Below, one piece after another: positions 1,247 through 63,475 of a stretch of DNA of 64,000 bases; the first letter of the stretch is position 1, and each line of letters opens with the position of its first letter. The position numbers and the translations under genes were made by a program. This DNA is from an uncultured virus (IMG/VR IMGVR_UViG_2576861459_000003) (lineage: Duplodnaviria > Heunggongvirae > Uroviricota > Caudoviricetes), in the IMG/VR virus record IMGVR_UViG_2576861459_000003, positions 1 to 64,000 of that record; one strand, 5' to 3'. The notes under the pieces were generated by a model, which was not told the DNA's origin, did not search any database, and saw nothing but the letters and a program-made list of their open reading frames with translations.

Positions 1247-1482
1247 CCTCCACCTCCAATACACTTATTTTATTTTCACTCTAAATAAATGACCGATTTT
1301 ATTTAAATATCTTACCTACCCTTGAAATGCTCTTCATAATCTTCATTTGATGTCTTCAGTAACTTCCATTACAAAGAGCTTATATTGCTCCCATGTAAGT
1401 CCCAAGTACTGGTGTAATTTTAAATCAGTATCGCTCTTATGCCATTCATCAACTAACTGATCAATATTTTCTTTTGTGAGTT

Positions 1483-1653
1483 TCATTGAAATAACCCTCC
1501 CCATATTACACCTGCTGCAATTGCAACAATGAAAACTGAAACAAATTTTATTACACCAATATACACTGCAAATTTAATATCCCCTTCGGAATCCACATTT
1601 GCTAAAAGCACAAGCCCAAATACAACTAATAAAACCCATGCAGTAACAATCAT
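1483..1653 (-). CDS. small two-TM membrane protein (YotH-like, 56 aa)
   Basis: Manually read [16 protein letters not shown]...GGLFQ, translationally coupled to neighbours. Confidence 0.6.
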
Positions 1654-2202
1654 CTACTTAGAACCCCTTTCGACTGTGTAACCACCGGTAATATCATTTA
1701 AGATCGCGCTATTTGAAGAAAGCTGCTTGCTCTCACTATCTTTATTTTTAGTGTAATTAATAAAATCCTCAAATTGGTTTAAATACACTCCGTAAGCTGT
1801 GTTGTTCAATTTATCAATTGTTTCGTCACTTGGTTTCAAAAACCAGCTATCAGTACCTTGTCCATACACTTCAAAAATTTGAACAATTACGTCCTTATAC
1901 TCAAAGTAAGCCAGTTTATTTTCAAATTCACATTCCTCATCAACTGGATTTCCTACATGATTTGTCGCATATTCCATCATTGAAGTAAGCATGTAACCTA
2001 ATTCAACATCCGAGAAACTTAGCTGTGGTTTAGGTGTTCCATAGTAAATAACCGCTTCATTAAATACTCCTCTTTGGTTCACTTCTTTAATGATTTCCTC
2101 GATAGCCGTGTAGCCCTCATGAATGATGAAATCTCTTTGCATCTCATCCATTCGTCTATACTCCTCTAATAAACTTGCTATCTTAAACTCTGTATTCTTC
2201 AT
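1654..2202 (-). CDS. hypothetical phage protein
   Basis: 182-aa ORF with RBS, in operon. Confidence 0.7.
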   Translation of the reverse strand: MKNTEFKIASLLEEYRRMDEMQRDFIIHEGYTAIEEIIKEVNQRGVFNEAVIYYGTPKPQLSFSDVELGYMLTSMMEYATNHVGNPVDEECEFENKLAYFEYKDVIVQIFEVYGQGTDSWFLKPSDETIDKLNNTAYGVYLNQFEDFINYTKNKDSESKQLSSNSAILNDITGGYTVERGSK

Positions 2203-2596
2203 TTAACTCCCCCTTGTGCAAATCAATTATTTCTGGTACTCGTTGAAAGAAAGTAATAATGCAATCCCTAGCATCATACGGATATTCGCAATCAATTTCG
2301 GCACTGGATATGTAAATTTCATATTCTATGCTGGATATTAGTTGATGATTATAAGGTAGCTCGAACTGTAAGTACCTCTTCACATTAGGTAACTGCTCAT
2401 TGACAAACTTCAAGAACTTCTTCTCATACTCAGGAATCTGTTCATATAATTTGTTTACATGTTCTTCAATTGTGTTTGCGTGCACTTTGTACAAATTCTC
2501 GAACAGTGTTTTGTTGATGTCCATTAACTCACTTAGAGCTTTAACAGCTCTCTCGTTTCCATTTAGAGTAACACCCCACCATTTATCCAAATGCAC
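2183..2596 (-). CDS. hypothetical phage protein
   Basis: 137-aa ORF, AAAGGA RBS. Confidence 0.65.
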   Translation of the reverse strand: MHLDKWWGVTLNGNERAVKALSELMDINKTLFENLYKVHANTIEEHVNKLYEQIPEYEKKFLKFVNEQLPNVKRYLQFELPYNHQLISSIEYEIYISSAEIDCEYPYDARDCIITFFQRVPEIIDLHKGELNEEYRV

Positions 2597-2630
2597 TTAA
2601 TCATCCTTTCTATATAGAATCAACATTTTA

Positions 2631-2759
2631 TCACTTTTTTCTATCATCAAACATTTTTTGGTTTTCTAGTAACTTAATGGCATAAACAAAATCAAGCGCA
2701 TATTCACTATCTTTGTTCTTCTTTAGTTCTTCCCTCAAAAACTCAATTACTTTATCCAA
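2631..2759 (-). CDS. small hypothetical protein (42 aa, YotD-like)
   Basis: Manually read ORF MDKVIEFLREEL..., TTG start after AAAGGA; bracketed by two boundary repeats. Confidence 0.55.
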   Translation of the reverse strand: MDKVIEFLREELKKNKDSEYALDFVYAIKLLENQKMFDDRKK

Positions 2760-2792
2760 TGTAAATCATCCTTTCTGCATAAAATTAGAATT

Positions 2793-3623
2793 TCATTTGA
2801 TTTCAAATGTCTTCAGGTCAAACATTTTATACGTATCAACTTGCTTACCTGGTATCTCATTTACTCTAGGATACATATCATAGTCATATGGATATCCAAT
2901 GCAGTTCATGTGAAAGCTCGTTCCTTCTTTATAAAACTCAGCTTGTAAATGATCGTGTCCACAAACCCAATGTTCAGCATTAATAAATGGCAAATCGACC
3001 ATATAGCAGCTGTTAGGCTCAAACGGAGAATAAGGATTGTGAACAGGTGGGACATGAGATACAAATACATCAATATCAGAGTTTTCAAGAGTGTCATACC
3101 AGTCCATTGATTCTTTCCACATTGCTCTTACTCCATCTTCTTTGCTGTATCCATTAAGGCTGATGTAGTTTGAATCATTAGAGACACCTTTGAAGAAATC
3201 CCATCCTTCATTTCCTTTTGGAAGATACCACATGACATCTCCACCAAAGACTTTTCCTTTGTATGTATCCGTAGACTTTATTAATGGAGTGACATTATTG
3301 ATGTTGGTAGCCTTCTGAATTAAATCATTCACCCTCCCCAAAGAATCGGAATATTTTCGGCGCTGATTCTTACTGAGTAAATAAAGATCATGATTACCAT
3401 ATGTGAAGTAAACCTTTTCATACTGCTTTGCTACTTCATCAAGTACCCACAGTGTCTGTTGATTCCACTCAGTAAAGTCACCGGCAATGATTAATACCTC
3501 ACCATTTCCATTCGATATTAACCTTCTAACAATCTCCCTTGTTCGCTTTTCCCACTTGATTTGGTTATTGTTCCAAGGGATCCAGTGATTAATATGCAGA
3601 TCTGAAACATAATCGATTTTCAT
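2793..3623 (-). CDS. yotB: calcineurin-like metallophosphoesterase
   Basis: DLH, GD, GNHD, SHVPP, GHDH motifs. Confidence 0.85.
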
Positions 3624-3709
3624 TTTATCCCCCTTCTTTGTTTAAGTACGTGTTAACTCATGCTCCATGACCAATTGACATTTAAATCACCTCACTTCAA
3701 ATTTAATGT

Positions 3710-3738
3710 GTATATTTTCAAAACATCTCCACACAATA
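3710..3738 (+). promoter_or_regulatory. putative sigma-G promoter of sspC
   Basis: GTATA-17 nt-CACAATA fits the sigma-G consensus upstream of a SASP gene. Confidence 0.55.
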
Positions 3739-3782
3739 CAATTGTACAAACTTGTTTACATACTACTTTAGGAGATGATCAT

Positions 3783-3995
3783 ATGGCTAAACAAAACAGA
3801 TCAAACAACAGCAATGAATTACTTGTGCCTCAAGCTGCTGGTGCTCTTGAACAAATGAAGTATGAAATTGCTTCTGAGTTCGGTGTGAACTTAGGGCCTG
3901 AGACAACAAGTAGAGCAAACGGATCAGTAGGTGGAGAGATCACAAAACGTTTAGTACGTTTAGCTCAACAAAGCATGAATGGCCAATTTCATTAA
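3783..3995 (+). CDS. sspC: alpha/beta-type small acid-soluble spore protein
   Basis: [26 protein letters not shown] signature; GGAG RBS before ATG 3783. Confidence 0.95.
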
Positions 3996-4000
3996 TGTAT

Positions 4001-4026
4001 GAGGGGATTACTCCCCTCTCTTTTTA
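4001..4026 (+). terminator. intrinsic terminator after sspC
   Basis: gagggg-attact-cccctc hairpin followed by T tract. Confidence 0.65.
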
Positions 4027-4076
4027 TGCTCCTCTTCCAAATCCATAAAGTACTACTGGCATTGTATTCACCTCCT

Positions 4077-4265
4077 TTAGTGAACAAATGTACTTCGTCT
4101 AATCAGCTCGTCTAAAACGATTTGAAGTTTTCTTCTCTGGTCTTTTATGTATGCATTGTTATCGGTACTCAATCCATCATTAATTCTATTTTGTATGTCT
4201 GTTTTCAGTCTCTCTAAGCTTTCAATTGGTAATTTTTCTAGACTAACTTTATATGATTGATTCAT
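4077..4265 (-). CDS. hypothetical protein
   Basis: ORF track, probable ATG at 4265. Confidence 0.55.
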   Translation of the reverse strand: MNQSYKVSLEKLPIESLERLKTDIQNRINDGLSTDNNAYIKDQRRKLQIVLDELIRRSTFVH

Positions 4266-4417
4266 TTTAATAGCCCCCAGCAAAAACAAGTGAAATTATC
4301 AATAACCAAAAGACTGCTCCAGAAACAGCAAGAAAGCTTTTTGCAATACTCATAAACTCTTGAAAATCATTCTTCAACGACTCTTTCACTGCATCACCTT
4401 CTCTTTAAAATACAGAT

Positions 4418-4594
4418 TTAAAGCACCTCTTCACTCAACAACTCTATAAAAACACTGTTGCGTTCTTTGCGCTCCTCATGTAATGCTTCGATTTCGTAGA
4501 TAAGCCGCCAAACGTGATGATAAAGGTGTTTGGGTACGCCGAGCTTCAGCGCCGCTATTGATTCGTTTAATTCGTACGGTGTTGGCCGTTTCAT
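4418..4594 (-). CDS. small hypothetical protein (58 aa, MKRPTPYEL...)
   Basis: Manually read ORF coupled to upstream gene; stop overlaps boundary repeat at 4406. Confidence 0.55.
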   Translation of the reverse strand: MKRPTPYELNESIAALKLGVPKHLYHHVWRLIYEIEALHEERKERNSVFIELLSEEVL

Positions 4595-4953
4595 CAAACA
4601 TTCACTCCTTCGATTTTGATTTCGAGAAGGTCAAGTGTATTGCATATTCCGGTTAATACTCCAGCATTATGGCGTTTAGCTTCAATATCCCCTGCTACAT
4701 ACCTCTCATCCCGCGATCTTTTTATATGCTCATAATAGTCCCGTAGTTTTTCCTCAGGCGTCGGTTCAGATTCATAACCGTTAATTAATGCAGCAGCTAA
4801 TGTTAATAGATCAAGATTATATAAACAACCACTCCTATTATCGCCAACTGTTAAGCTATCATTTGTATATGATAGTAATATTCCTTCATCGCACAATCTT
4901 AATCGGAGTTCTTCTATAGCCTCTGCCTGTTCCTTCGTGATTGTCGGCTTCAT
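4594..4953 (-). CDS. hypothetical phage protein
   Basis: ORF track, ATGA coupling. Confidence 0.7.
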   Translation of the reverse strand: MKPTITKEQAEAIEELRLRLCDEGILLSYTNDSLTVGDNRSGCLYNLDLLTLAAALINGYESEPTPEEKLRDYYEHIKRSRDERYVAGDIEAKRHNAGVLTGICNTLDLLEIKIEGVNV

Positions 4954-6839: not shown

Positions 6840-6914
6840 AACGCCACTCCTATTTATTATTTTATTTTTATTCTAAAAGTATGTAAAAAAAAGACAAGAT
6901 TTTAACTTGTCTTT

Positions 6915-6964
6915 ATCTTATCATTCAGCCTCTCAAAAGTCTATAACTATTTTATTTTTATTCT
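6915..6964 (-). promoter_or_regulatory. sigma-A promoter with upstream SPBRE-like element
   Basis: Minus strand AGAATAAAAATAAAA..TAGACT-17-TAAGAT. Confidence 0.6.
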
Positions 6965-10463: not shown

Positions 10464-10580
10464 GGCTTCCCCTTCCTAAATTTTAGATAAAAGTCTTCTT
10501 TTATTTAGTCCTTTTTCCTGATTACTGGTATAATATACTTGTCTCAAAATTCTCAATATACGAAAAGGTGGTAATATTTA

Positions 10581-11977: not shown

Positions 11978-12025
11978 TTATTAGCTCCTTTATTATTAGT
12001 TTGTTTAAACTTGCCCGTTTATTGA

Positions 12026-18323: not shown

Positions 18324-18357
18324 TTTGCTTCCCCTTCCTATGAAACTGTGATTTTAT

Positions 18358-19073: not shown

Positions 19074-19112
19074 CCTATTCTCCTTTTCTGATTTCTCTTT
19101 AAAATCATCCTT

Positions 19113-19469
19113 TTAAAGTAATGAATAAAATCCCAGTTCGCTGACCGCCCCGCCAGCCATTGTTTTGAGCACTTTGAATTCTAATTTAACTGCCAAGTCT
19201 CCTGCCATGTTGAAATGAATTTTATTAATGTCCGCCTTTAACACCTTTGTTTCGCCCTCATAACTTGTCAATTTCATTTTAAGTGGACTTTTTATCCCCT
19301 CATTCAAATCAAACACCTTATATGCTGTTGAATTCTTACCAGTGTTTATAGTAATCCTGTCCTCATCCTCAACAGCTTCAATGTTCTGGTAGTGAAGAAC
19401 AATTTTCGTTTCCTTCGGTAAATAATTATTAAATTTTTCTTTAAAAACAGAGATTTCTTTTAAAATCAT
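19113..19469 (-). CDS. hypothetical protein
   Basis: ORF track with AAGGAG RBS. Confidence 0.7.
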   Translation of the reverse strand: MILKEISVFKEKFNNYLPKETKIVLHYQNIEAVEDEDRITINTGKNSTAYKVFDLNEGIKSPLKMKLTSYEGETKVLKADINKIHFNMAGDLAVKLEFKVLKTMAGGAVSELGFYSLL

Positions 19470-19787: not shown

Positions 19788-19824
19788 CTCCTCTTTTGTT
19801 TAAAATAAAACTTTTAATTAAATC

Positions 19825-20402: not shown

Positions 20403-20810
20403 TTAGTCTTTTTTAGTTAGCCTCTTCCACCAGGAAGTTTTACGTTTTTCTTCTTCCTCTTTAAAGCGTTCATAGTTTTCTTTAACTTGCTGATTCCATT
20501 TCTGTATTTTTTCTTGTGTTTGAATCGCTTTTTCAAGGCTCTCTTTATCCTCAATTGTTTTAATTACCTTGTCAGTCTGATATGTCCATTCATTTTTTGT
20601 GTTGCGCTGCCTGTCTGTTACAACTACGTATTCATTAAACCCAGGAATATAAACCTTTCCACCAACTTCAATTGGGTCTAAGTCGATGATTCCTTCAAAA
20701 AATGTCTGGAATTCACATTGCTGCTCAATTGGAACAAGAGCATCACACAGGCCTAACCTCCAACTTTTCTTAATTATCTTCCCTTCAAATGTTGCTTTAT
20801 GTCGTCCCAC
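20403..20810 (-). CDS. hypothetical protein (YosD-like)
   Basis: GGAGGTG RBS; paralogue of next ORF. Confidence 0.7.
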   Translation of the reverse strand: MGRHKATFEGKIIKKSWRLGLCDALVPIEQQCEFQTFFEGIIDLDPIEVGGKVYIPGFNEYVVVTDRQRNTKNEWTYQTDKVIKTIEDKESLEKAIQTQEKIQKWNQQVKENYERFKEEEEKRKTSWWKRLTKKD

Positions 20811-21467: not shown

Positions 21468-21502
21468 GTTTTTCTCCTTTCTTTATAAAAATTGAATTTT
21501 AT

Positions 21503-22427: not shown

Positions 22428-22483
22428 TTAACATCTCTCCATTTCATTTGATTCTCTATAAAAGGAATATTTTATTTTTACTC

Positions 22484-22695: not shown

Positions 22696-22745
22696 AATAT
22701 ACTCGCATTCTCTCAAACAATCAACAACTATTTTATTTTTATTCT
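22696..22745 (-). promoter_or_regulatory. sigma-A promoter with upstream SPBRE-like element
   Basis: AGAATAAAAATAAAA..TTGATT-17-TATATT. Confidence 0.65.
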
Positions 22746-22942
22746 TAAAAAGTTTCTTTTAAATTTCTTAGCTTTACTGTTGCAGCCAAAATATCCGAGT
22801 CACACCTTTTCCATATGTGGTTATCCTCTGGCCTTAAATTGTTCTCTAAATATACCCAAAGCTTATCTAATATCTCCTCAATCTGATCAACGTCATTATT
22901 AATGATATCCCTGGCAATATCCCTAATTACACGAAACCTCCT

Positions 22943-23435: not shown

Positions 23436-23565
23436 CTCTTATATTTTTATTTTTACTCTTTAAAAGAGATATTTCAAACAGTTTCACAAACACTTCACAC
23501 ATTTCAAATATTTAACATGCTGGACTGGAGTTATAATCACAATCAAAACCTAGGAGGTAATTCTT

Positions 23566-32928: not shown

Positions 32929-34443
32929 TTATCCTGCTTTAACATTCAATTTTTCAACTGTAATTAATTCGTTATCGAGATTTGTTGTGAAACAATCCTT
33001 GATCCGCATATTTCCCATATTTATATGGGAGAAGACTTTTACTTTGTCGTACTCATTTCCCCTGTTCTTAAATACGTGTGTAACAAAATTTGGCTCTGAG
33101 TAAAAACCTGCTTTTAAAATCGGATCAATAGCATCCTTCTCTTTTTTACTTAAGGGTAGAATAATCATTGCAGCATCAGTCTTATCTGCAATAGCTTTAC
33201 TTCCTCTAAGGTAAGATGCATCTATAACTTGTCCTTTTTGCCATGCCTCTTTCCATTCACCATTTAATTGAGTAGCACTCATCATATAGACATCGTATTT
33301 GTTGCATAAGCCCTTTAACTTATCAGACATAAGCAAAAGGATTTGATCCTCTCTTAGGTTGACGCCGCTTTTTTTACTCATCTCCGAAAAAATTGTCACC
33401 GATGAGTGAATATAATCAAAGTAAATGTACTCAACATTATTTTTAATTACATTCTTTTCAATCGTTCTCTCGATCTCCTGGATATTGAAATCTGGAAGAT
33501 GCTCGAACCAAATATTGGACTCTTGAAGAACTTTAGCAGCTTTGCGCACAAGCTGTTTTTCTTGCTCATTAATAGTATTTCTGAGTATTTTTTTCTCTTC
33601 TACACCACTGATATAGGCAAGAGCCAAGCTTTGCAATTCCTCTGCCATCATTTCCGTTGAGATGACCGCGGAACTTTCATTCCAAGGATTTTTCACCCAT
33701 TCTTTCTTTTTAAGGTCGTACAACTCAGTTGCACTTAATCGACAAGCATCAGCAACCATATTTCTTGTTTTACCTCCGCCTGTAATACTTGAGCGAATAT
33801 AAAACTTTTTCTTACGAGACCCACGGAAAATTGACGTAAGCATTTCGCTATTTAGTGGTACTCCAATATCTGGCGACTCCTCAAAAGAATCTAATAACTC
33901 ATCAATGCCTTCTCCACCTTGAATTCCCACGCTTTCGGATGAGGTTCGAAACTTCTCTTTTACATCTACAATCTTCATTTCATAAGCTGCTAGAATTTCA
34001 TCAATCGATTTCTTATCAAACTGTTCCTGCATTTTTTCTTGTTCTTTTGGATCAATTATAGTTTCATCATAAATCTCCTTGATATCGAAACCTAAGCCGC
34101 TCATTTCTCTGAGCAAACTAAATTTTTTTAGTCTTTTATAGTGGTAATCAAAGTTTTCGACTACAGCCAACTCTTGAATTCTCTCGATGTATTCAAGGCC
34201 ATTGTTATCATGAAAAATCTTATATTGAATGTCGTAATCTTTTAGATATCCATCTATCTCAACCTCATTCAATACTTCCGTCCCTTGCTGGAATAAGTTA
34301 CTCATAGCAAAAAACAGTATTGAGTGAAATCTTGAAGGGAAATCATCCGAAGTAATCCTATACTTGTTGCTTTCAGACAAGATTGTGGGATCCTTGAGTA
34401 TGCTTCCTAAAACCTGAATAATTGCTTTTTTGTCTTGTAGCAA
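32929..34443 (-). CDS. yorI: DnaB-like replicative helicase
   Basis: TGGGKT Walker A, STEM, FDYI, ATQLN, KNR motifs. Confidence 0.9.
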   Translation of the reverse strand: MLQDKKAIIQVLGSILKDPTILSESNKYRITSDDFPSRFHSILFFAMSNLFQQGTEVLNEVEIDGYLKDYDIQYKIFHDNNGLEYIERIQELAVVENFDYHYKRLKKFSLLREMSGLGFDIKEIYDETIIDPKEQEKMQEQFDKKSIDEILAAYEMKIVDVKEKFRTSSESVGIQGGEGIDELLDSFEESPDIGVPLNSEMLTSIFRGSRKKKFYIRSSITGGGKTRNMVADACRLSATELYDLKKKEWVKNPWNESSAVISTEMMAEELQSLALAYISGVEEKKILRNTINEQEKQLVRKAAKVLQESNIWFEHLPDFNIQEIERTIEKNVIKNNVEYIYFDYIHSSVTIFSEMSKKSGVNLREDQILLLMSDKLKGLCNKYDVYMMSATQLNGEWKEAWQKGQVIDASYLRGSKAIADKTDAAMIILPLSKKEKDAIDPILKAGFYSEPNFVTHVFKNRGNEYDKVKVFSHINMGNMRIKDCFTTNLDNELITVEKLNVKAG

Positions 34444-35941: not shown

Positions 35942-36030
35942 TTAAGCTCTCCTTTATTTTTGAATTTGATGGGTGAGTCGAAGCCCACCCCAGATATGTA
36001 TCTTAAGTTAATAGATTTTATTTTTATCTA

Positions 36031-37381: not shown

Positions 37382-37431
37382 ATCTTACATCACCAAAACG
37401 GATTGGTCAATAACTATTTTATTTTTATTCT
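37382..37431 (-). promoter_or_regulatory. sigma-A promoter of the replication operon with SPBRE-like element
   Basis: AGAATAAAAATAAAA..TTGACC-17-TAAGAT. Confidence 0.72.
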
Positions 37432-39304: not shown

Positions 39305-39416
39305 ACCTAATTCCTCCTCTGAGTGTTTTATTATATTACACTCAGACATTACCCCAAAAATATCCATATAAACCACTTTCTATTTAATTTGTTTTCTTTT
39401 AAAACTACAGTTTTAT

Positions 39417-41980: not shown

Positions 41981-42076
41981 TTAATAACCACTCCTTTTTA
42001 TTTTTGTTTTATTCTTAAAACTCAAATCACATAGGTAACTCACATTGTTATCACCCCCTTAAATAAAAAATTACTT

Positions 42077-42475
42077 TTATTTAGACTCAATACTGATTCC
42101 TGAATCCTTTAGCAATCCCATTTGTTCCCCTGATATATTTGCTTTCACTACGTCCCACCCGACTAATGTTTGACCGTAATACAAATCAGTTAACTCTACA
42201 TCACCATCATTCAAATCACCTTTTAATCGAATTATTCTTTCTCTATACGTTTCGTGCCCTACAATTTCATAGTCGTCATTATAAATTTCAAACGTTTTGT
42301 TGTCGGTTTCATAGTCTTCGAAAGATGTACATAAATATCTGCCGTCAGAAAGGGACGGGTTAGTTTTCAGCCATTCATATACTTCTTCATTAGATCTAGC
42401 AAGCAAGTATGTAAAGATACCCCGTTCACTTCCTCTAGGAGCAAAGTGTTTTAACATAATTTCATATAAATTCAT
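42077..42475 (-). CDS. hypothetical protein (YoqY-like)
   Basis: Start MNLYEI after AAGGAG. Confidence 0.65.
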   Translation of the reverse strand: MNLYEIMLKHFAPRGSERGIFTYLLARSNEEVYEWLKTNPSLSDGRYLCTSFEDYETDNKTFEIYNDDYEIVGHETYRERIIRLKGDLNDGDVELTDLYYGQTLVGWDVVKANISGEQMGLLKDSGISIESK

Positions 42476-42541
42476 CCGTTTCTCCTTTTTAAATGTATTT
42501 AAAATCTCTGTTTCACCTTCATTAAAGCTATCTGTCTTCAA

Positions 42542-44495: not shown

Positions 44496-44867
44496 TCAAC
44501 ACTCTCTAAACCCTATTTCTTTTGCCTTCTGACGGATTTTCATGCATCCTTCATAGCTGTAAGCCCATATTTCTTTATAATCCCTCAGTTCGCCGCATTT
44601 CCCTGTTATAATGAACTTTCTAAAACTGTTGACCAGTTGCCACATGTTTCCTCCATGCGAAAAGCCGTTTGGACTACCGTACCCCATTTCATATGGATAA
44701 ACATCAGCCCCCGTATAATCATCAACGAAGAATAGTTTCTTCTTAAACCTGAAATACGCTTTGCGATTCATTTGCTTACAGAAGAAAGTGCGTCTATCAA
44801 TATCAGCAATTAGCTTTATCAAGTCATTAATATCATTCATGCGTTTTATTTGCTCTTGATTTGGCAA
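44496..44867 (-). CDS. hypothetical protein
   Basis: ORF track with AAGGAGG RBS. Confidence 0.65.
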   Translation of the reverse strand: MPNQEQIKRMNDINDLIKLIADIDRRTFFCKQMNRKAYFRFKKKLFFVDDYTGADVYPYEMGYGSPNGFSHGGNMWQLVNSFRKFIITGKCGELRDYKEIWAYSYEGCMKIRQKAKEIGFREC

Positions 44868-45029
44868 TTTGGTTGCCTCCTTTCATTAAAATAAATATTT
44901 TATTTTGATCCAAATTTGATCACCAATCAAGTTCTAAATCGTCCATAATATTTGTCATTGCATCGTCCTCTTCTTCTGTTAACCCGTAATCAGCAAGCCT
45001 GTTTAAATAGTCTTCTCGCTCGTGTTTGG

Positions 45030-46582: not shown

Positions 46583-46597
46583 TTTGAAAACTATCTT

Positions 46598-46999
46598 TTA
46601 TCTGAACTCTAATGGCTCATTCAACTCAAATGCCAATCTACACCCATTGATAAACTGTTTTAAAGTTTCTATGTATCTATTAGGCAACATATAATCATGA
46701 GGCATTTCCACATTTGCCAACTCTTCTGCATAGGGTAAGATGGCTTCTAATTCCTCTGCAACAACTTTACACATTTCAGGTGTAATTACACCATCACAAT
46801 CTGAATGACCGAAAAACTCTGTTAGCCCCTTATGGGTTATTGTTGAATAGCCTTTGCCAAAGTACCAATAACCATCCTTAAATTTTTGGTTATCATGTGG
46901 TGGCCAACTCCCTCCAATTGATTTTAATAAAAATCTTCTAAGATTATTGAATGACGAGTACGCCCCATCGAATGCTCCGTGTGTTACATATAAACCCAT
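46598..46999 (-). CDS. hypothetical protein with HSDCDG motif
   Basis: GGAGG RBS; bracketed by boundary repeats. Confidence 0.7.
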   Translation of the reverse strand: MGLYVTHGAFDGAYSSFNNLRRFLLKSIGGSWPPHDNQKFKDGYWYFGKGYSTITHKGLTEFFGHSDCDGVITPEMCKVVAEELEAILPYAEELANVEMPHDYMLPNRYIETLKQFINGCRLAFELNEPLEFR

Positions 47000-47122
47000 G
47001 TATCAAGGCCTCCAATTCTGTTTAAAATCACGATTTTAATTTAACTTTAATGTGTATCATCTTGAGAAAATCCCCTTTAATTGGTAAACTCATACCTAAC
47101 TTACGTAAGAGTGGGTGATTCC

Positions 47123-47875: not shown

Positions 47876-47909
47876 GTGTCTTCCTCCTTACAATGAAATA
47901 ATCCTTTTA

Positions 47910-49952: not shown

Positions 49953-50003
49953 CCTTTTTATTTTTATTTAAAATGCATCTTTTAACTGGTTGAACTTATA
50001 CGG

Positions 50004-51419: not shown

Positions 51420-51453
51420 TATTCCTCCCTCGTTTCCAACAACTCAATAAAAC

Positions 51454-51678
51454 TTACATTTTATTTTTATTCTTAAAATAACCGTGCTGATTTACAACAT
51501 CTCGAAGTATGTATTGTATTTCCTCTAAATTGTCTTTAACGAAATCTAGATCTCCAATTGCCATTCTGATTTCATTATTCTCTATGCTGCGTAAAGACCT
51601 TTCACATGATACTAAGAGCTTTGTATATTTCCTTAAAACCATAGTTCTTATTTGATCGTTAATTGGTTCATTAATCAA
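51454..51678 (-). CDS. hypothetical protein
   Basis: ORF track. Confidence 0.55.
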   Translation of the reverse strand: MINEPINDQIRTMVLRKYTKLLVSCERSLRSIENNEIRMAIGDLDFVKDNLEEIQYILRDVVNQHGYFKNKNKM

Positions 51679-51713: not shown

Positions 51714-51763
51714 ATTATATAACCTCAACCATATGTTGTAAATACTTATTTTATTTTTACTCT
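51714..51763 (-). promoter_or_regulatory. sigma-A promoter with SPBRE-like element
   Basis: AGAGTAAAAATAAAA..TTTACA-17-TATAAT. Confidence 0.7.
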
Positions 51764-53013: not shown

Positions 53014-53997
53014 TTAAGAATTAGTCTCAATTACTTCAGACTTGATACAATATTTTTCTAAGTTCTCCATATTCACTACTTTCCTCAGTGATTGAGAATT
53101 AAACTCCGCGTCTTCATTCAGGAACCCATATTGTCGAGTTATTTTTTTATAATCAGGTACTTTTAATTCGCCCTTCTCTTTGTATATCTCATACGCCATG
53201 TTGAGCTTTCCTGAGTTGATAAGATTCTTGGGTGAAAAGAAGGGTTCTTCTAAAAATTTTTGAAACTGACTAAAAGAACGGTGAACTAAAAATTTATCAG
53301 CTTTCATACTCTGATTAGAACTCTTATATTTTAGCCTAAAAATGTTTTCGCTTTTAACTAATGTAGCAAATTTGTTTTTAAGTCCACTCTCTGGCGAACC
53401 ATTGCTAAGATGATATGTTGTTTGATCATTAGCGCGCTTAAGCAACTCATAACATTTATCGCTTACAGTAATTATTCTTACACCATGTTTATCATCTACC
53501 AGCTTTACCTTGTTATCATCAAGTAAATCGTCACCTGTTAAATTCAGTAACTCTGAATGCTGATAACCATCTATACCTTCATAAATAGCCTGTATCATCG
53601 CTTTATCCTGATCATTAACCATAAAATCAACATATTCTTCTACTTCTTTATTGGTGAATAGTGTTTTTTTGTTTTTATCTATAAACTGCTTTAAGTCACC
53701 ATCCTGTATCTGATACACTTTGTTGATGTTACTGTTTGCCAAGCCATTTTCCATTGCCCATGTTGTGTATTGTCCAATTACAGCTCTTGCTCCTCTTAGT
53801 GAATCTATAGATTTACTATCTAAATCTAAAAATAACGTACGCAGCTCTTCCAAAGAAAAATTAAATATGTCTTTTTGAAGTATTTTTTCTGTAGCTGAGA
53901 AATCCCTTAGCCTTAGCCAATAAAGGTTTCTTGTTACTTCACTTTCGTATTTCTCTAAAAACTTTTCCTTTAATTCAGCATTATACATTTCACTCAT
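53014..53997 (-). CDS. yopR: YopR/MrpR (SroF) master repressor, degenerate tyrosine-recombinase fold
   Basis: [11 protein letters not shown] start, [18 protein letters not shown]; last gene of sro operon. Confidence 0.85.
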
Positions 53998-54017: not shown

Positions 54018-55367
54018 TTAAACAACAGCAATTTCATCATAAAATATTCTCTTTAGTTTCTTCTTCATAGCAGTCTTCAGTTGATTTTCATTATTTCGTC
54101 TTCCTAATTCTTCAAACACTCTTCCGCTCTTACTAAAGTCAATTGTATTAAGGATACTTTCAAGCTTGTTTAGTTCTACATTGTTTTCCTTCATCTTCTT
54201 GGCCAAATAAACATAACCGTAAAACATTACGTTATGATTAATGTATGATTGCTTTCTAATGGACGATAAATCATCTTCAAGAAATTCATCTGGGAAGGCA
54301 TAAAAAAGGTTATCAAAAAAGTCGACCAGGTATTTCGCAATTTTCAACGCATCTTTTCGAGATTTCAACTCAAATGCATCATCTATAGCTTCGGATAAAG
54401 TATAATATGTCACAAGGAAATTGCTATCGATACCAATTTCACTTTGTGGGCTTATTTTATTTTTAAGTTCACTTTTAAATTTCAGCTGCTCGACAACTGT
54501 TGAAGAATACCGTTTTTGCCCTAATTCTTCAATTCTGGATTTTTCAACTGGGTTTATTGTGTTCATTTGAGCAAAGTGAACCTTAGCCTTTTCTTCATCG
54601 TAATTGAGCACATTTAAAATGAATGGTTGATCTAATTCAGGGACTTCAGCAATGGCCTTAACAATACCTGAAATTCGATGGTACCCATCTAGAGCATCTA
54701 ATAAGGTTCCTCGCGTTACAGTGAGGGTTTGGTCGCTTGGATCATATTCAACTTCTTCATCCCCATCTGATGTTCCAAGACGAGCGTTAAAAGTTAACAT
54801 AGATACAATTAAATCGCCTTTGATAAACAATTCTTTGATCTCATCAACTGATTTAGGGTTTGTTTTAGGTACAGGGATAAGGCTGCCCTTAATGTACTTT
54901 CCTTCACGCTGAGTGTTGTAATTGTACTGCAGAATGGAGCTATTATATAACTCACTAAGTTCTTTGGCAGTAATGGAAGTGACATAGTTATCCTCTTTAA
55001 TTTTAATCACATTTTTAAACTTGTATGGAAGCTTAACTACTTCTTCACCGGCGAATACTCTCCCACCTTCAAGCTCTTTTGCCAATCTGGTTGGAAAATA
55101 ATTTGACGGATCTAAAGCGTGCGCCCCAAGAATTGAATACATCTCTTTTGAAACAATGTAGACTTCTTTTTCGTTTAAACGCTGTACGTTGTTATCATTA
55201 TTATTTAAAATTTCTTGGATATAACCAGGGAGTGCCTTGTATTTTTCCGCCATCGTAGCTTTTAATTCCTTCACCATATTGGAATCATCTTTAATATCAA
55301 TAAGCCTTTCCTCTATTTCACTTTTTAACTTATAAAGTTTATCCGTTGTTAACAAAACATCAGACAC
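54018..55367 (-). CDS. yopQ: YopQ (SroE), DndB/DGQHR-like domain protein
   Basis: LDGYHR and FAQMN motifs; synteny. Confidence 0.82.
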
Positions 55368-55443: not shown

Positions 55444-56502
55444 TCACTTATTCAAAAACATTTTAAGTTTACTCTGTATATACATGTCTGATTTTAAAAA
55501 GAATTCTTTATATTGCTCTAATGTAACATCATCTAAAAAGGTCATATCTTCTTTTTGATCAACCAAAACCCCTGGATCTTGAGAATAATCCCTTTCATTG
55601 ACTAAATAATGATCATTCAAAACATTGATATTGCTGTGACCAGAGAACGCTGCCACTTTTTTAATATCACCATTAACGCTGTAAGAAAAGTTTGTTGCAG
55701 TATTGCGTAAACTATGCGGAGTTATCTTTCTTTCTTTGGGAATACCCATAACTCTACATACGCGATTCCACATATCCTGTATTGAATCAACTGTTAACTT
55801 ATGAAATAACAGTTCATGTTCCCCATACTCTTGCTTTAACAGCAACAACTCTTCATAAAAAGCTGTGGAAATTCCAACTGGCCTAGCCTTTTTTTGCTTA
55901 GTTTTTTTAAAGTTGACGAGATAACATTGATGCTTTTCTGAATAAGTAATATCATCCCACCCAACTCTAAGCACCTCTGATTTACGCCCACCAGTACGTG
56001 CACTAAACAAAATAAACATCTTTTTCATTAATCTGTTCTGACGCTCAGTAGCATAAGCTGCCTCAGCAAATTCATCAGCTTCCGATATTCCTTCAAAAGA
56101 CCCTGCTGGATTCTTTTCTGTTGGAAGAGGTCTAAAATTAAATACAGATGAATCACACTCATGTTCAGATTCAAGATACTTAATCATGCTTTTCAGTGCG
56201 GCAATCTTATTGTTAATTGTTGAATTGGAGTTACTTTTATTTTTAGCCAAATGGGTTCGATAATCATACAGGTCGCTTTTCTTGATCGCCAGGTCACTCT
56301 CAGTTAAATATTCAATATCCTTGGCAGCATAGTGGTTGAAAAACTCTCTTATATGCCTTTCATACGTGGCTCTAGTATTAGACTTTTCAATTTCTCCAGT
56401 TTCTCGATCCCTGTTTCTTAAATCTAATTCATCAAACCACCTATTTATGTTATTGTATATTGAATAATCCCTTAGTGTTGACGCTTTCTTTTGAGCTCCC
56501 AT
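55444..56502 (-). CDS. yopP: YopP (SroD) tyrosine recombinase with complete catalytic set
   Basis: TGGRKSE (R), KKTK (K), HSLR, SGH, DHY. Confidence 0.88.
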   Translation of the reverse strand: MGAQKKASTLRDYSIYNNINRWFDELDLRNRDRETGEIEKSNTRATYERHIREFFNHYAAKDIEYLTESDLAIKKSDLYDYRTHLAKNKSNSNSTINNKIAALKSMIKYLESEHECDSSVFNFRPLPTEKNPAGSFEGISEADEFAEAAYATERQNRLMKKMFILFSARTGGRKSEVLRVGWDDITYSEKHQCYLVNFKKTKQKKARPVGISTAFYEELLLLKQEYGEHELLFHKLTVDSIQDMWNRVCRVMGIPKERKITPHSLRNTATNFSYSVNGDIKKVAAFSGHSNINVLNDHYLVNERDYSQDPGVLVDQKEDMTFLDDVTLEQYKEFFLKSDMYIQSKLKMFLNK

Positions 56503-58952: not shown

Positions 58953-59003
58953 AATATACATTAGAGTTGTCAGAATTACAAGTATTTATTTTATTTTTAT
59001 TCT
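58953..59003 (-). promoter_or_regulatory. sigma-A promoter of aimR with SPBRE-like element
   Basis: AGAATAAAAATAAAA..TTGTAA-17-TATATT. Confidence 0.7.
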
Positions 59004-59055
59004 AATTATTTTTTAAGGATTAATTATCTGTTTAAAATTCGTATTTTATGAAGAC

Positions 59056-59905: not shown

Positions 59906-59955
59906 ATATCTCCACCCACTTATTTTAATAAAAGGATTCTTTTATCTAAATTCAT

Positions 59956-60636
59956 TCAAAGGAAATTCTTTATTCGATCCCAATCTTCTCTTTGTTTCTC
60001 TAAGGGCCTTGAACTTCGAGCCAACTTACCAATATGATAAACAGGGAACCACTTTGCTTCATTTATGATTATGGGTTCCTCGAACTTAATCACATCTCCT
60101 AAATGATTCGAGCATCTTATGTTATACACTCTTTTAACAGTCCTAAAGGGTTTTACTCCTAAGGTAATAATAATTTTAGGATTAACAATTTCAATTTCAT
60201 ATTTCAAAAAGTTTTCGCTACAATTCCTATACCAAGCAGATTTTGTTCTACCGGACAAGTTTTCTGTCTCTTTCATGCATAGTATTGCATTCGTCAAGTA
60301 TGTATCTTCTGGCCTGATACCTATAATAGCTAGCATTTCAATCAGTTTATTGTTTGTTGGATTTAATGGGTTCACTTGGCCCTTATTTCTAATAAATGCA
60401 TCTACATGACCCCAATCTTGTCCTATGATTAACACTTTAGCATTTAAATTGCCGTGCCATTTAGTCCAAGGATTTATGTGATTGGAATCATATCTCCCAT
60501 TTAGTATTACTGCCGGATTCTTGACTCCTTGACATAAAGTGCATTGTTTCCTGCGAAGAACTAATTCTCTGTACTTCCTATTTTTTGAGACTTGCCTTAG
60601 TGTATCAGACAAAAGATAACCACTCCTTTTGTTCAC
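59956..60636 (-). CDS. uracil-DNA glycosylase superfamily protein (family 4/5-like)
   Basis: CTLC, GQDWG, YLTNAILC, PKIIITLG, PVYH motifs. Confidence 0.82.
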   Translation of the reverse strand: MNKRSGYLLSDTLRQVSKNRKYRELVLRRKQCTLCQGVKNPAVILNGRYDSNHINPWTKWHGNLNAKVLIIGQDWGHVDAFIRNKGQVNPLNPTNNKLIEMLAIIGIRPEDTYLTNAILCMKETENLSGRTKSAWYRNCSENFLKYEIEIVNPKIIITLGVKPFRTVKRVYNIRCSNHLGDVIKFEEPIIINEAKWFPVYHIGKLARSSRPLEKQREDWDRIKNFL

Positions 60637-60690
60637 CTGAGTTAACCTACACTTTAAATAAGGTAATTATTTCAAGATCTCACTCTTTAT

Positions 60691-60822
60691 TTAAAGCCGT
60701 TTCCATTCAACATACTCAAATCTCTGTTGATAAAGGTCTTCCAGGATTGAAGCCCATTCAATCCAACCTTCAGCAACGATGCTTTTCTTCTCCCCATCCT
60801 CAATCCATTCAATCCAGTACAC
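60691..60822 (-). CDS. yopG: small Trp-rich protein (43 aa)
   Basis: Manually read ORF MYWIEWIEDGEKK...; size and synteny. Confidence 0.6.
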   Translation of the reverse strand: MYWIEWIEDGEKKSIVAEGWIEWASILEDLYQQRFEYVEWKRL

Positions 60823-60833
60823 CTGAACACTCC

Positions 60834-61049
60834 TCACCTAGTAATAACTTCAATTTGTCTTATGGCAGAAATGGCTTTAAACTCTGTATGCAGCTCGTTT
60901 GCGATCACTAAAGCTTCTGACATTGTAGTAAATTTAGAAGCGCCATGTAGCCCATTAGATAATATATAACCACTGCCATCTAATTTAAATGACTTGAAGT
61001 AATCATCATTTTCAAATTGAATAACAAAAAAGATATCGATAACCGGCAT
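60834..61049 (-). CDS. yopF: hypothetical protein (71 aa)
   Basis: Size and synteny. Confidence 0.6.
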   Translation of the reverse strand: MPVIDIFFVIQFENDDYFKSFKLDGSGYILSNGLHGASKFTTMSEALVIANELHTEFKAISAIRQIEVITR

Positions 61050-61051
61050 AG

Positions 61052-61303
61052 CTAACTCCTCTTCAAAAGACCACCAATTTTTATGGCCAGTGGTAGCAAT
61101 CCAATCAGTATGTAAAACACCATGATATTTATTTTATTTTTAAAGAACAGTTCAATCAAATTCTGCTCCATACCTGGTGAAAATGAATCAATCAGTTCCT
61201 GCTTAAACTCTTCATCATAAACCTGATCAACAAATAAGGCCTTAAATCCCGTTAGAAAGCCAACACCGAGCCAGAGTATTAAGAAATATGCTATTCCAAT
61301 CAA
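61052..61303 (-). CDS. yopE: two-TM membrane protein (83 aa)
   Basis: Size and synteny. Confidence 0.6.
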   Translation of the reverse strand: MIGIAYFLILWLGVGFLTGFKALFVDQVYDEEFKQELIDSFSPGMEQNLIELFFKNKINIMVFYILIGLLPLAIKIGGLLKRS

Positions 61304-61373
61304 ATTAAAGCCCTCCTTATATACATCGTCTGGTATTATAGTAGTGTTAAATACTTTGTGCAGGTGAAATTTA

Positions 61374-61556
61374 ATGGAAGAGAAAGATTTTGAGACGAAT
61401 GGTTTCGATGTAACAGTTGTGTATGATTATAAGGAGTATCCCGATGTTAAATATGGACGCTGTGACAACTGTGATTACGCTTTGTTCAAGAGTTCAGTGA
61501 AAAGTGGTGTGTTTTTACGTGAGTGTCGTAGGTGTGGTATGAAGAAGAGCATTTAG
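61374..61556 (+). CDS. small zinc-ribbon protein
   Basis: CDNC..CRRC; AGGTG RBS; terminator-like hairpin at its end. Confidence 0.65.
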   Translation: MEEKDFETNGFDVTVVYDYKEYPDVKYGRCDNCDYALFKSSVKSGVFLRECRRCGMKKSI

Positions 61557-61569
61557 TTTAATGCTCTTT

Positions 61570-61800
61570 TTATTTCACTGGATCCATGTAGCTTACATAT
61601 ACTTCAATTCCGTCTTCAGTTTTATATTCTGCAATCCTGTCTGGATCAGCTTCAATCTTCTCTATTAGTCGTTTCGCATCCTTGTTCCTCTTTGCAGTAT
61701 TGGAAACTACAATCCAAGACCAATAATTCCATTCAGAGATGCAAGACTTAATCTTTTCTGGTATCTTATGACCTCTTGTATAAACCTTGATCATTTGCAT
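61570..61800 (-). CDS. hypothetical protein
   Basis: ORF track, GGGGGAG RBS. Confidence 0.6.
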   Translation of the reverse strand: MQMIKVYTRGHKIPEKIKSCISEWNYWSWIVVSNTAKRNKDAKRLIEKIEADPDRIAEYKTEDGIEVYVSYMDPVK

Positions 61801-61818
61801 ACTCCCCCTGCCGGTTCA

Positions 61819-62046
61819 TTATTTAATCCAATTTGCTGGTGGAAAGCTCAATACTCGATGTTGTCCATCTAAATAAGCATGTTTCCTTTCCCAGGTACTT
61901 TTCTTCCATGCTTTTTGATTTGTATATGATGGATCTAATGGCTTTGGATATTCTCCGTTCACCCATCCATCTTCAATATGATTCAGTTTGGCTTCGGTAC
62001 CTTTATCATCGTATTTGTACCAGACAGTAATCATTTTGGCTGCCAT
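61819..62046 (-). CDS. hypothetical protein (start MAAKMI)
   Basis: ORF track. Confidence 0.6.
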   Translation of the reverse strand: MAAKMITVWYKYDDKGTEAKLNHIEDGWVNGEYPKPLDPSYTNQKAWKKSTWERKHAYLDGQHRVLSFPPANWIK

Positions 62047-62094
62047 ATGTTCACCTGCTTCCCTTAAAAACACAACTTTATTTTAATCTATTAT

Positions 62095-62574
62095 TCACTC
62101 ATCTATAAAATCACTCGCACACTGATAAAGCTTTTGATATATATCTTCATCAACTGGTGGCTCAATTTGCTTAACGCCATTTTCCACTTCACTATAACGA
62201 CGACCATCGTATGGATTTTTCTCCCATACAACTGGAATGGACACGTCTCTGTATTTAAAATATACACCGCCATCTTCAAACTCTTGTCTTTGAGTTAGGC
62301 CCACTGGGGCAATGTCAATAATTTCATCATCTAATTTCACCCACATGTGAAATTCATAAGGCGGATCCCATCTATAGGCCAAAGGAAGAATCATAGGATT
62401 GAAAATTAATTCACCTGCTTTTAGTTCAGCATTAATACCATACTTTTTTTGAAGCAACTCTTTTGTTAAATATGAAGTATATGCACATTTATCTCCAATC
62501 GACACTCTAAGTTTATTGAACGCAGTTATTATCCCTTCAACAATGTTTTTTTGCATACGCTCTTTTTCGTTCAT
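62095..62574 (-). CDS. hypothetical accessory protein with C..H.W..D pattern (possible transglutaminase-like fold)
   Basis: DKCAYTS, FHMWV, IIDI; bracketed by boundary repeats. Confidence 0.65.
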   Translation of the reverse strand: MNEKERMQKNIVEGIITAFNKLRVSIGDKCAYTSYLTKELLQKKYGINAELKAGELIFNPMILPLAYRWDPPYEFHMWVKLDDEIIDIAPVGLTQRQEFEDGGVYFKYRDVSIPVVWEKNPYDGRRYSEVENGVKQIEPPVDEDIYQKLYQCASDFIDE

Positions 62575-62621
62575 ATTGCCCTCCTACCAGGTCTTTGTTT
62601 ATTTTATTTAAAAGAATGATT

Positions 62622-63011
62622 TTATTCAGTAACACCATTTTCATATTCAAGGTTGTATGTTGCTATTTCGTGTACTCCTATATCCCCTGCAAAGTTTCCA
62701 TCCTCATGTTCCTGTTGTAAATAAACCTCTTTATCTTTTTCAAAGATTTCTCTTGCTTCATCTAATTCAGTTACAGCTTGCGATCCCATTCGATCTGTTA
62801 CAGTAAATACTAAGCACCGTTTTAACTCGGTACCATCTTTAAGGACTACGTCTGCCATGACGTACCCATTTGGCTTTAGTTCGCCAATTTCATTACGTCT
62901 TTTATCGATTGCCTCTTGAAGAACCACAGAAACAGTATTGTTATCAGACTCACTTAAAGCCATTTCTAATTCTTCAATTTCCTCAAGTAGTACTTGAATT
63001 TCCTCTCTCAT
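62622..63011 (-). CDS. hypothetical protein
   Basis: ORF track, AAGGAG RBS. Confidence 0.7.
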   Translation of the reverse strand: MREEIQVLLEEIEELEMALSESDNNTVSVVLQEAIDKRRNEIGELKPNGYVMADVVLKDGTELKRCLVFTVTDRMGSQAVTELDEAREIFEKDKEVYLQQEHEDGNFAGDIGVHEIATYNLEYENGVTE

Positions 63012-63039
63012 TCTTCATCTCTCCTTTTTAATATACGCC

Positions 63040-63414
63040 CTATGAAACCCATAAAAATTTCTCATTGTTGCACCTTAAATCACCTAAAATGGTTACAGCA
63101 TCGCCAATATCATACAAACAATCAAGGTATTCGTTTAAAGCATCTGCCCAGCTATCAAAATCGAATTCAGTAGATTCTTCACCATTTTCAATTGACTGTT
63201 TGATCCATTCAAAGTTCTCAACAACTATTTTAAAGTCATCTAGAAAAATTTCATCTAGAGCATTATTGTTTCCTTTTTCAATTCGTCGTTCTTCTTTCCT
63301 GAGTATGTATTTCAATTCAGAAAGCACATTTTTCGCAACCTCATGTACAGCATCATTTGTTTCTTTGTTTGTAAGGTATTGCTTGATATTAATTTGATTT
63401 CTCCATTTCGGCAT
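63040..63414 (-). CDS. hypothetical protein
   Basis: ORF track. Confidence 0.7.
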   Translation of the reverse strand: MPKWRNQINIKQYLTNKETNDAVHEVAKNVLSELKYILRKEERRIEKGNNNALDEIFLDDFKIVVENFEWIKQSIENGEESTEFDFDSWADALNEYLDCLYDIGDAVTILGDLRCNNEKFLWVS

Positions 63415-63475
63415 TTCTATATTCCCCTTTCATGTGTGGTTTTCACCTTCTAATTTTGTAAAAGTACGATTTTAT

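Follow-up and report, generated by a model that had tools for sequence, protein, structure and literature searches.

When related phages trade genes and yet keep their gene order, what fixes the points at which one gene stops and another begins? Such trading is usually ascribed to rare illegitimate events or to homology between conserved genes. The question is raised anew by a 64,000-base stretch of DNA from an uncultured virus (IMG/VR IMGVR_UViG_2576861459_000003), in which copies of a short inverted repeat, TAAAA-N6-TTTTA, stand between genes. We refer to this stretch, which makes up positions 1 to 64,000 of a virus record of 123,854 bp, as the window, to the repeat as the dyad, and to its six free bases as the centre; counts for the whole phage refer to all 123,854 bp. 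The dyads mark a significant share of the module boundaries between related phages, and their centres behave as slot labels. From its sequence, the dyad is a double-stranded site with two-fold symmetry and a putative protein-binding site, and our leading, tentative reading is that it serves a recombinase carried by the phage itself.

By its sequence the source phage is a mosaic SPbeta-like phage. Megablast matched it only to Bacillus phages of the genus Spbetavirus, with 30-42% of a 25-kb query covered by each at ~79-88% identity. The window, whose genes lie mostly on the minus strand, encodes proteins with Pfam matches to the SPbeta hallmarks MrpR, DndB-type YopQ, a YopP-type integrase-family protein, AimR, YorP, and YoqO, as well as to thymidylate synthase and parts of ribonucleotide reductase. 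The nearest relative of the window that we found, here called C23, is a 133,358-bp contig of ~35% GC from an SPbeta-like phage; it sits inside an assembly titled Streptomyces and is probably a contamination or a mis-binned contig.

Number and location of the sites

The window contains 18 perfect copies of the dyad against 0.79 expected (100 dinucleotide shuffles, largest 3). A preliminary description of this DNA had given the spacer as always six bases, and the counts agree: across gaps of 0-14, N6 alone is enriched, with its 18 copies set against 0-5 for every other gap and ~1 expected for each. All 15 perfect copies and all nine single-mismatch copies listed in that description were recovered at their coordinates, as was a variant changed in both arms, TAAAC-ttgccc-GTTTA at 12006-12021; the list was incomplete, however, in that three perfect copies (22746, 33101, and 48108) had been overlooked. 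With one mismatch allowed, the window holds 42 copies against 18.1 expected, so that ~17 of the 24 single-mismatch copies could be chance, those located at junctions being the credible ones. The fuller form TRAAA-N6-TTTYA occurs 36 times in the whole phage and 26 times in the window.

Under a ribosome-site-aware gene model, the 25 perfect copies of the whole phage divide into 21 in intergenic DNA, one straddling a gene end, and three in coding DNA. Intergenic DNA, 24,082 nt in all, would be expected to hold 0.53 copies (no more than 4 in any of 200 shuffles) and coding DNA 1.0, in agreement with the earlier view that the copies belong between genes. That view had gone further and placed every copy at a gene junction, which is true of all the copies then listed and fails for the overlooked copy at 33101, inside the helicase gene of the replication operon, which is probably a product of chance or of coding constraint. 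None of the junctions of that operon carries a copy, as had been reported. Copies also stand between divergent genes (10488, 23461, and 47023), where there is no upstream stop codon.

SPBc2 has 34 perfect dyads, spread across early and late regions. Its record annotates one of them as a stem_loop (the copy at 2629, annotated at 2622-2651 together with an extended A/T palindrome), and the other 33 perfect copies are without repeat annotation. No description of the dyad was found by full-text literature searches or in the portions of the SPbeta papers that these covered, a scope outside which the 1999 SPBc2 genome paper falls.

The sites of the window are as follows; no strand is assigned to them.

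1286..1301, dyad with one arm mismatch, at a gene junction
2615..2630, dyad with one arm mismatch, right after a stop codon
2780..2795, dyad of the TRAAA-N6-TTTYA form; centre equal to that of SPBc2 131162
4406..4421, dyad with one arm mismatch; 97% homology to three phages stops in the upstream arm
10488..10503, perfect dyad between divergent genes
12006..12021, TAAAC-N6-GTTTA variant, both arms changed, at a junction
18341..18356, dyad of the TRAAA form; C23 homology ends 4 bp past the site
19100..19115, perfect dyad overlapping a stop codon; centre equal to that of SPBc2 118867
19801..19816, perfect dyad; centre kept in six other phages, where the 40-nt flanks are just 25-45% identical
21486..21501, perfect dyad; BUCT083 and phi3T homology passes through and stops just downstream
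22459..22474, perfect dyad; centre equal to that of SPBc2 116415
22746..22761, perfect dyad in a 273-nt gap between minus-strand genes
23461..23476, dyad with a TTTCA arm; hybrid of two C23 sites flanking ~600 bp
33101..33116, perfect match inside the helicase gene
39400..39415, perfect dyad after a stop codon; C23 homology boundary 5 bp off
42064..42079, perfect dyad; left edge of a module replaced in C23 (436 bp versus 837 bp)
42500..42515, dyad with a TTTCA arm; right edge of the C23-replaced module that begins at 42064
44887..44902, perfect dyad; 90% homology to SPBc2 and BUCT082 begins 4 nt upstream
46585..46600, dyad with a TGAAA arm; centre equal to that of SPBc2 92394, flanks non-homologous; C23 boundary
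47023..47038, perfect dyad between divergent genes; SPBc2 and phi3T homology ends in the downstream arm
47894..47909, dyad with a TGAAA arm; left edge of a ~2-kb module replaced in C23
48108..48123, perfect dyad abutting a stop codon; centre equal to that of SPBc2 88400, flanks non-homologous
49969..49984, perfect dyad; right edge of the ~2-kb C23-replaced module; centre equal to that of SPBc2 86074
51448..51463, perfect dyad overlapping a stop codon; a 7.6-kb block of 97% identity to C23 starts 5 bp before it
59033..59048, perfect dyad after a terminator-like hairpin upstream of aimR; the 97% C23 block ends 8 bp past it
59929..59944, perfect dyad at a junction
62065..62080, dyad with one arm mismatch; C23 homology ends within the site
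62609..62624, perfect dyad overlapping a stop codon
63459..63474, perfect dyad one base past a stop codon

Shared centres and homology boundaries

The source phage and SPBc2 have 14 six-base centres in common, against 0.32 expected, and these follow one another in perfectly colinear order. When the 120-nt flanks of these 14 shared sites were compared, with a threshold set from unrelated site pairs, neither flank was homologous at seven sites, one at six, and both at one; tblastx with 500-nt flanks found nothing on either side at six of the 14. In base-by-base views, homology breaks off inside an arm or a few bases from it; the break is upstream at 4406 and 44887, downstream at 21486 and 47023. 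Exchange can affect either flank, and because homology can stop on either side of a site, the site is part of neither of the genes next to it. Of 118 pairs of orthologous sites, which are not independent of one another, 67 have one homologous and one unrelated flank, and in 60 of those 67 the centre is identical and the whole 16-mer is kept.

Of the 73 informative alignment ends in the comparison with C23, 60% of which is alignable, 14 are no farther than 10 bp from a site, where a uniform null predicts 0.76 (largest 5 in 2000). For ends in intergenic DNA the figure is 10 of 36, against 2.7 expected (largest 9 in 2000 draws). Three modules replaced in C23 (42064-42500, 46606-47009, and 47908-49967) are flanked by a site at either end. 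In the comparison of SPBc2 with phi3T, 12 ends of 100%-identical tracts are informative, and 7 of them are no more than 7 bp from a site; two such tracts, mtbP (113663-115066) and yopW-yoqD (83687-86899), are bounded by sites on both sides. When SPBc2 was compared with six phages, near-identical blocks had 33 unique ends, 9 of them at most 10 bp from a site (P = 2e-11 for a uniform null and 5e-4 for a 7.5% null). The prediction that boundaries of gain, loss, and replacement between related phages would coincide with the sites is thus upheld at nucleotide resolution. Alignments of at least 80 bp to seven relatives are all colinear, with the exception of one 81-bp match.

The site at 23461 joins the left flank and arm of one C23 site (114478) to the centre, right arm, and flank of a second C23 site, which is degenerate; ~600 bp lie between the two C23 sites, whose centres share their first two bases. 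Judged from the sequences, the hybrid would be the expected remnant of one exchange between two sites, and a microhomology deletion would look alike. At the phi3T orthologue of 22459 (~20418-20444), an extra left arm and six bases precede the dyad, giving TAAAA-N6-TAAAA-N6-TTTTA, a half-site duplication of 11 bases, perhaps the scar of a recombination event.

Architecture of the dyad

The 19 perfect copies that could be oriented by their genes follow the pattern T-Y-W-A-R-W / TAAAA / K-N4 / TTTTA / W-A-N-A-R-A. The 5 inner bp of each arm show no variation, positions -6 to -4 are weak mirror images of +20 to +22 (0.4-1.1 bits, a signal that may partly stem from stop codons and purine-rich leaders), and the first and last bases of the centre are mirror-biased, T/G versus A/C. 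The resemblance to a tyrosine-recombinase core site proposed in the preliminary description stands for the strict inner arms of 5 bp and the 6-bp centre, and may extend to the outer positions, which are weakly symmetric to ~11 bp.

The two halves vary independently. At positions 2 and 15, the combinations AT/GC/GT/AC number 13/11/17/11, 12/12/14/19, and 24/3/15/16 in three Paenibacillus prophages, and across the three the unpairable A-C combinations (46) outnumber G-C (26). This independent assortment of R and Y, with A-C commoner than G-C, excludes a selected stem, whether of RNA or as a cruciform, and comes close to refuting the RNA-processing signal that the preliminary description had offered as an alternative. 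The symmetric R/Y degeneracy fits two subunits reading two half-sites on duplex DNA.

That no centre occurs twice, as had been remarked, is true of this genome, for which chance alone predicts as much. Across seven genomes, repeated centres within a genome amount to 0 pairs among 302 sites, against an expectation of 7.8 under a position-specific composition null and 6.3 by a conservative count (P = 0.002); the composition null overpredicts centre matches between unrelated genomes (~16 seen versus 30 expected). This pattern is suggestive only. Deep conservation of centres between Bacillus and Paenibacillus phages was considered and rejected, sharing between them being at chance level.

Distribution among phages and hosts

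Nine prophage loci came out of a polymerase-based scan, in Bacillus, in Paenibacillus, and in two metagenome bins. The accessory regions of three Paenibacillus prophages hold 13, 12, and 24 perfect copies, and arms of the TGAAA/TTTCA type are common there too; these copies overturned an earlier impression, gained from 24-kb polymerase-gene loci, that the motif was absent from the Paenibacillus relatives. Sites number 25-58 per phage genome. In the assembly of a high-GC host, 24 of 25 copies lie on a single 133-kb low-GC phage contig. The host genomes show no enrichment: that of B. pseudomycoides has 105 copies against 111 of a reversed control pattern, 27 of the 105 lying in 72 kb of prophage DNA, and the other comparisons gave 47 against 57 and 27 against 47 control copies. 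The motif is phage-specific and common to SPbeta-like prophages of Bacillus and Paenibacillus.

Candidate proteins

Three neighbouring genes of the window bear on the question of what might read the dyad.

55447..56502, minus strand, YopP-like tyrosine recombinase gene, candidate enzyme or binder (Pfam Phage_integrase, 5e-14)
54021..55367, minus strand, YopQ-like DndB/ParB-type gene, rival candidate binder (Pfam DndB, 2.8e-16)
53017..53997, minus strand, MrpR (YopR) homologue, binder of the separate element SPBRE (Pfam MrpR_C_cat and MrpR_N_CB)

The phage has two PF00589 genes, the YopP-like gene and a YomM-like gene at genome positions 101719-102777, which is followed by a dyad at 102831. A profile built from six members of the YopP family has XerH as its best match among solved structures (2.9e-9), with the catalytic Arg, His-x-x-Arg, and His aligned; the YopP-like sequence on its own had no match to solved structures at 1e-3. 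The YomM-like protein matches XerA and XerH weakly, its alignment to XerA showing the Arg, the His-x-x-Arg, and the His. Integration of SPbeta is described as the work of a serine recombinase (PMC8612738, PMC10516654), which leaves YopP without an assigned role, and yopQ, yopP, and mrpR are presented as core genes thought to be active in lysogeny (PMC10516654).

YopQ-like homologues occur in all five of the other motif-bearing prophage genomes, in addition to the window and SPBc2, and divergent PF00589 genes lie near each Paenibacillus prophage. Phyletic profiles single out no binder.

Discussion

In the model that we favour, a pair of identical or similar protein subunits would read each TRAAA-N6-TTTYA dyad, and the dyads would act as fixed crossover joints between the genes of SPbeta-like phages. 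Two related phages, or a phage and a prophage, present in one cell would pair copies of equal six-base centre, and the paired copies would exchange DNA on one side, with gene modules being replaced slot by slot and gene order left undisturbed. The likeliest catalyst would be a phage-borne Xer-like tyrosine recombinase, YopP-like in the first place and YomM-like in the second, which would cut at the borders between arms and centre and would require matching centres to finish the exchange. That the dyads are core-type sites of such a recombinase, exchanging modules between matching centres, strikes us as approaching an even call without quite reaching it. Taken as a whole, a natural form of "addressed" recombination, in which 25-58 dyads per genome with common arms and private six-base centres direct equal-centre exchange by a phage Xer-like recombinase, is an idea that we would call plausible while stopping short of probable. 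Under such a system, co-resident phages could swap modules in register and be spared deletions within a genome. Protein binding, the identity of the protein, and site-specific exchange as opposed to ordinary recombination are points that we infer.

Several observations weigh against this model. Identical 16-mers also guide ordinary or relaxed homologous recombination, and the boundary evidence therefore cannot separate the two mechanisms. Most boundaries lie elsewhere: 57 of the 73 C23 alignment ends are near a site in neither genome, and the same is true of 23 of the 33 SPBc2 block ends. With six distant phages, BLAST ends are not enriched at sites relative to an intergenic null (5 versus 3.9, p = 0.33), and the boundary signal appears with closer relatives only. 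A junction-level test is modest, with a breakpoint at 11 of 12 informative motif junctions versus 43 of 76 motif-less junctions (p = 0.025, two sites being counted twice and conserved operons being among the controls). In laboratory phi3Ts-SPbeta hybrids, 15 of 16 junctions are given as lying in homologous regions, the other, a "non-homologous" one, "following yosA," according to the preprint that describes them; the left junction of Hyb2 lies inside 1.4 kb identical in both parents and is hence uninformative. Calibrated on unrelated genome pairs, the expected number of repeated centres falls to ~2.5-3.4 (P ~0.03-0.08), so that P ranges with the choice of null from <0.001 to ~0.08. The placement of 13 of the 17 non-coding perfect copies, 16-34 nt upstream of a start codon (read from the site listing), would suit a regulator too. 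On the protein side, the nucleophilic Tyr of YopP would have to lie just past the stretch aligned to XerH, an invariant Tyr being found three residues later; a YopP-like homologue is on the prophage contig in four of the five other genomes, and the YomM-like query found none in the prophages of these five. MrpR, encoded in the same operon as YopP, has a tyrosine-recombinase fold and yet is described as a repressor only (PMC10516654).

The strongest competitor, which we consider a genuine possibility if a somewhat doubtful one, is a phage protein that binds the dyad and does not recombine it, either the ParB/DndB-like YopQ or a helix-turn-helix regulator. Control of early genes or organisation of the genome would then come first, the dyad being perhaps a YopQ loading or silencing site like those of KorB on plasmid RK2, and crossovers by ordinary or relaxed homologous recombination would follow as a by-product, the 16-mers being the sole conserved sequence among fast-changing genes. 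Independent half-sites fit any dimeric DNA-binding protein, and the position of the sites, close upstream of ribosome sites and also in divergent intergenic regions, is compatible with such a role, as are the YopQ-like genes in five of five other motif-bearing prophage genomes. The account of yopQ, yopP, and mrpR as lysogeny core genes (PMC10516654) is also in keeping with it, MrpR provides a precedent in SPbeta for a repressor of repeated elements, and the 15 of 16 hybrid junctions reported in homologous DNA fit it too; the whole 16-mers kept in 60 of 67 one-flank pairs are predicted just as well by exchange that homology guides. A regulator blind to the centre, however, gives no reason for 0 repeated centres where 2.5-7.8 are expected; 16 bp is very short for homologous recombination, and both flanks are unrelated at 7 of the 14 shared sites. 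Nor is there an excess of sigma-A-type promoters near the sites (29 versus 36 expected at 42-52 kb), and the distance from the site to an A-rich 12-mer described below varies over 2-7 nt, which leaves no fixed promoter geometry. Classical ParB and KorB sites, moreover, are continuous palindromes and are not known to have a free 6-bp centre.

The other explanations fare worse. Host recombinases of the XerC/XerD type (CodV/RipX in Bacillus), borrowed by the phage as other Xer-exploiting elements and the Acinetobacter pdif modules borrow theirs, would account for the 6-bp centre and inverted arms of a dif-type site and for a motif kept across Bacillus and Paenibacillus phages, whose hosts have conserved Xer enzymes; multiple pdif sites are indeed reported to flank plasmid accessory modules (PMC6449649). 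We regard this as improbable all the same, given that the arms of the dyad are symmetric where XerC and XerD arms differ, that host chromosomes show no motif enrichment, and that the phages carry Xer-like genes of their own. An mRNA signal, such as a small hairpin or an RNA-binding or processing element ahead of ribosome sites that controls the translation or stability of early genes, would suit sites lying between a stop codon and the next ribosome site and having a gene-sense asymmetry (none of 19 oriented copies begins its centre with A, and the bases after the site are purines). It is close to refuted by the independence of the half-sites, with A-C commoner than G-C, and by a symmetric R/Y degeneracy that is the signature of two-fold recognition of duplex DNA; in addition, six of nine single-mismatch junction copies break the would-be pair, and copies lie between divergent genes as well as, in both orientations, in late-gene regions. 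A 5-bp A-U stem would also be thermodynamically very weak. No more credit can be given to the integron-like array of the preliminary description, a platform on which single-gene cassettes with folded sites are captured and reshuffled by one integrase, for which many small genes each between two sites, and one ~600-bp insertion or deletion between two sites that left a hybrid site, could be cited. Sites of the attC type are long, imperfect, and folded, whereas those found here are duplex dyads of 16 bp with independently varying halves; shared sites keep one strictly colinear order between phages, with homologous segments never at another slot, contrary to cassette shuffling; neither of the two integrase-family genes heads an array, there being no integrase with attI and a common promoter; and the genes have ribosome sites of their own, with sites in the late-gene region too. 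A further idea, that the dyad is a late promoter of YonO, was dropped: the literature gives one start site upstream of yonK and no promoter sequence, and the sites are mainly in early regions.

If we return to the recombinase model, the closest formal parallel is XerH/difH, both sites having A-tract inner arms around a 6-bp centre. difH is given as TGAAAA-N6-TTTTCA (PMC3325230), and XerH is described as reading the inner 5 bp of each difH arm around the 6-bp centre, with the outer arm contacted mainly at the backbone and the centre barely contacted (PMC5241119). Unlike the dyads, which number 25-58 per phage genome, difH occurs once per chromosome and serves dimer resolution with FtsK; the dyads lie at gene junctions, and have a centre of their own at each copy and arms one A shorter. 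In Acinetobacter, many Xer-type pdif sites are likewise reported to flank adaptive modules that differ between replicons, but with distinct XerC and XerD arms, host enzymes, and modules that move among plasmids (PMC6449649), whereas the dyads have symmetric arms and are found on phages, with their slots in fixed order. The PeSLs of T4-type phages are described as similar in being short intergenic repeats among small non-essential genes, at the edges of insertions, deletions, and replacements, and as strong promoters with terminator stem-loops that recombine with one another and may yield mini-circles (PMC2839356). The dyads differ in having no promoter or terminator signal, no stem, and a free centre that is different at every copy. 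The features of a PeSL-type cassette were looked for and not found, with sigma-A-type promoter-like sites at 29 versus 36 expected (42-52 kb) and no selected pairing.

A mechanistic analogue comes from genome engineering. In recombinase-mediated cassette exchange with heterospecific lox or FRT sites, an engineered use of Cre and Flp, the arms are identical and exchange takes place only if the centres match. Should the recombinase model be right, the dyads would work alike, with the segment that lies between two differently centred sites being swapped in register; we know of no natural multi-site version. Integron attC/attI sites are alike in that recombination-type sites separate small genes, and folded attC sites, an integrase and attI at an array head, and cassettes at different slots were looked for in the phages and not found.

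A model phage family thus has short sites of strict build, dozens of them, placed precisely at swap points. Were a dedicated recombinase to read them, they would represent a new way for viruses to organise modular evolution, the orphan core gene yopP (or yomM) would gain a function, and naturally orthogonal recombination sites would become available for Bacillus genome engineering. If instead a regulator or a ParB-like protein binds them, they would constitute an unrecognised global control layer of SPbeta beside MrpR/SPBRE.

Neighbouring elements and further observations

SPBRE, a repeated element of the same phage family, is reported as a prediction of 1999 that proved in 2023 to be the operator of MrpR, at ten promoters (PMC10516654, PMC4191935); it is given as 15 bp long and as present at the promoters of yorE, aimR, yonT, yonP, yonX, yorZ, yosX, yopV, and yopM among others (PMC10516654). 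In the 300 bases upstream of the ten SPBRE genes in SPBc2, nine share approximately AAATACAAAWAATATGTATA, which is distinct from the dyad, and a perfect dyad is present in three of the ten regions at other positions. The possibility that the dyad is itself SPBRE, the MrpR operator, was rejected, as the sequences differ. The two elements are alike in that SPBRE is repeated and its binder has a tyrosine-recombinase fold and is encoded in the YopP operon; unlike the dyad as we read it, SPBRE has ~ten promoter sites, where it acts as an operator for a repressor and does not recombine. In the DNA upstream of aimR and yorE (window 59033-59048; SPBc2 76171 and 99498), a terminator-like hairpin comes first, a dyad second, and SPBRE with the promoter last, so that at the head of each of these two operons the dyad stands next to the MrpR operator.

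A second repeat, TAAAAATAAAAT in gene sense, is the A-rich 12-mer mentioned above. It has 33 copies with at most one mismatch against 4.7 expected, 31 of the 33 on one strand, and examples in the window are at 6859-6870, 6949-6960, 22730-22741, 36015-36026, 37416-37427, 51748-51759, and 58988-58999. It often lies 2-7 nt downstream of a dyad, ahead of the ribosome site, and may be a promoter -10-like or leader element.

Downstream of the dyad at 42064 (window 42064-41980), a good ribosome site lies 18 bases past the dyad and is followed by a one-codon frame, ATG-TGA; a poly-gamma-glutamate hydrolase gene starts ~83 nt downstream of the dyad, and the arrangement before yoqZ in SPBc2 is the same. 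The public runs that match the window, all of them available as contigs, yielded no excised circles and no usable information on strand or transcript ends, and their loose ends near 51458-51482 are too short to count. At window 44524-44588, inside the gene at 44496-44867, contigs from four of four public runs break or have loose ends, which suggests a short sequence that is repeated elsewhere in those genomes.

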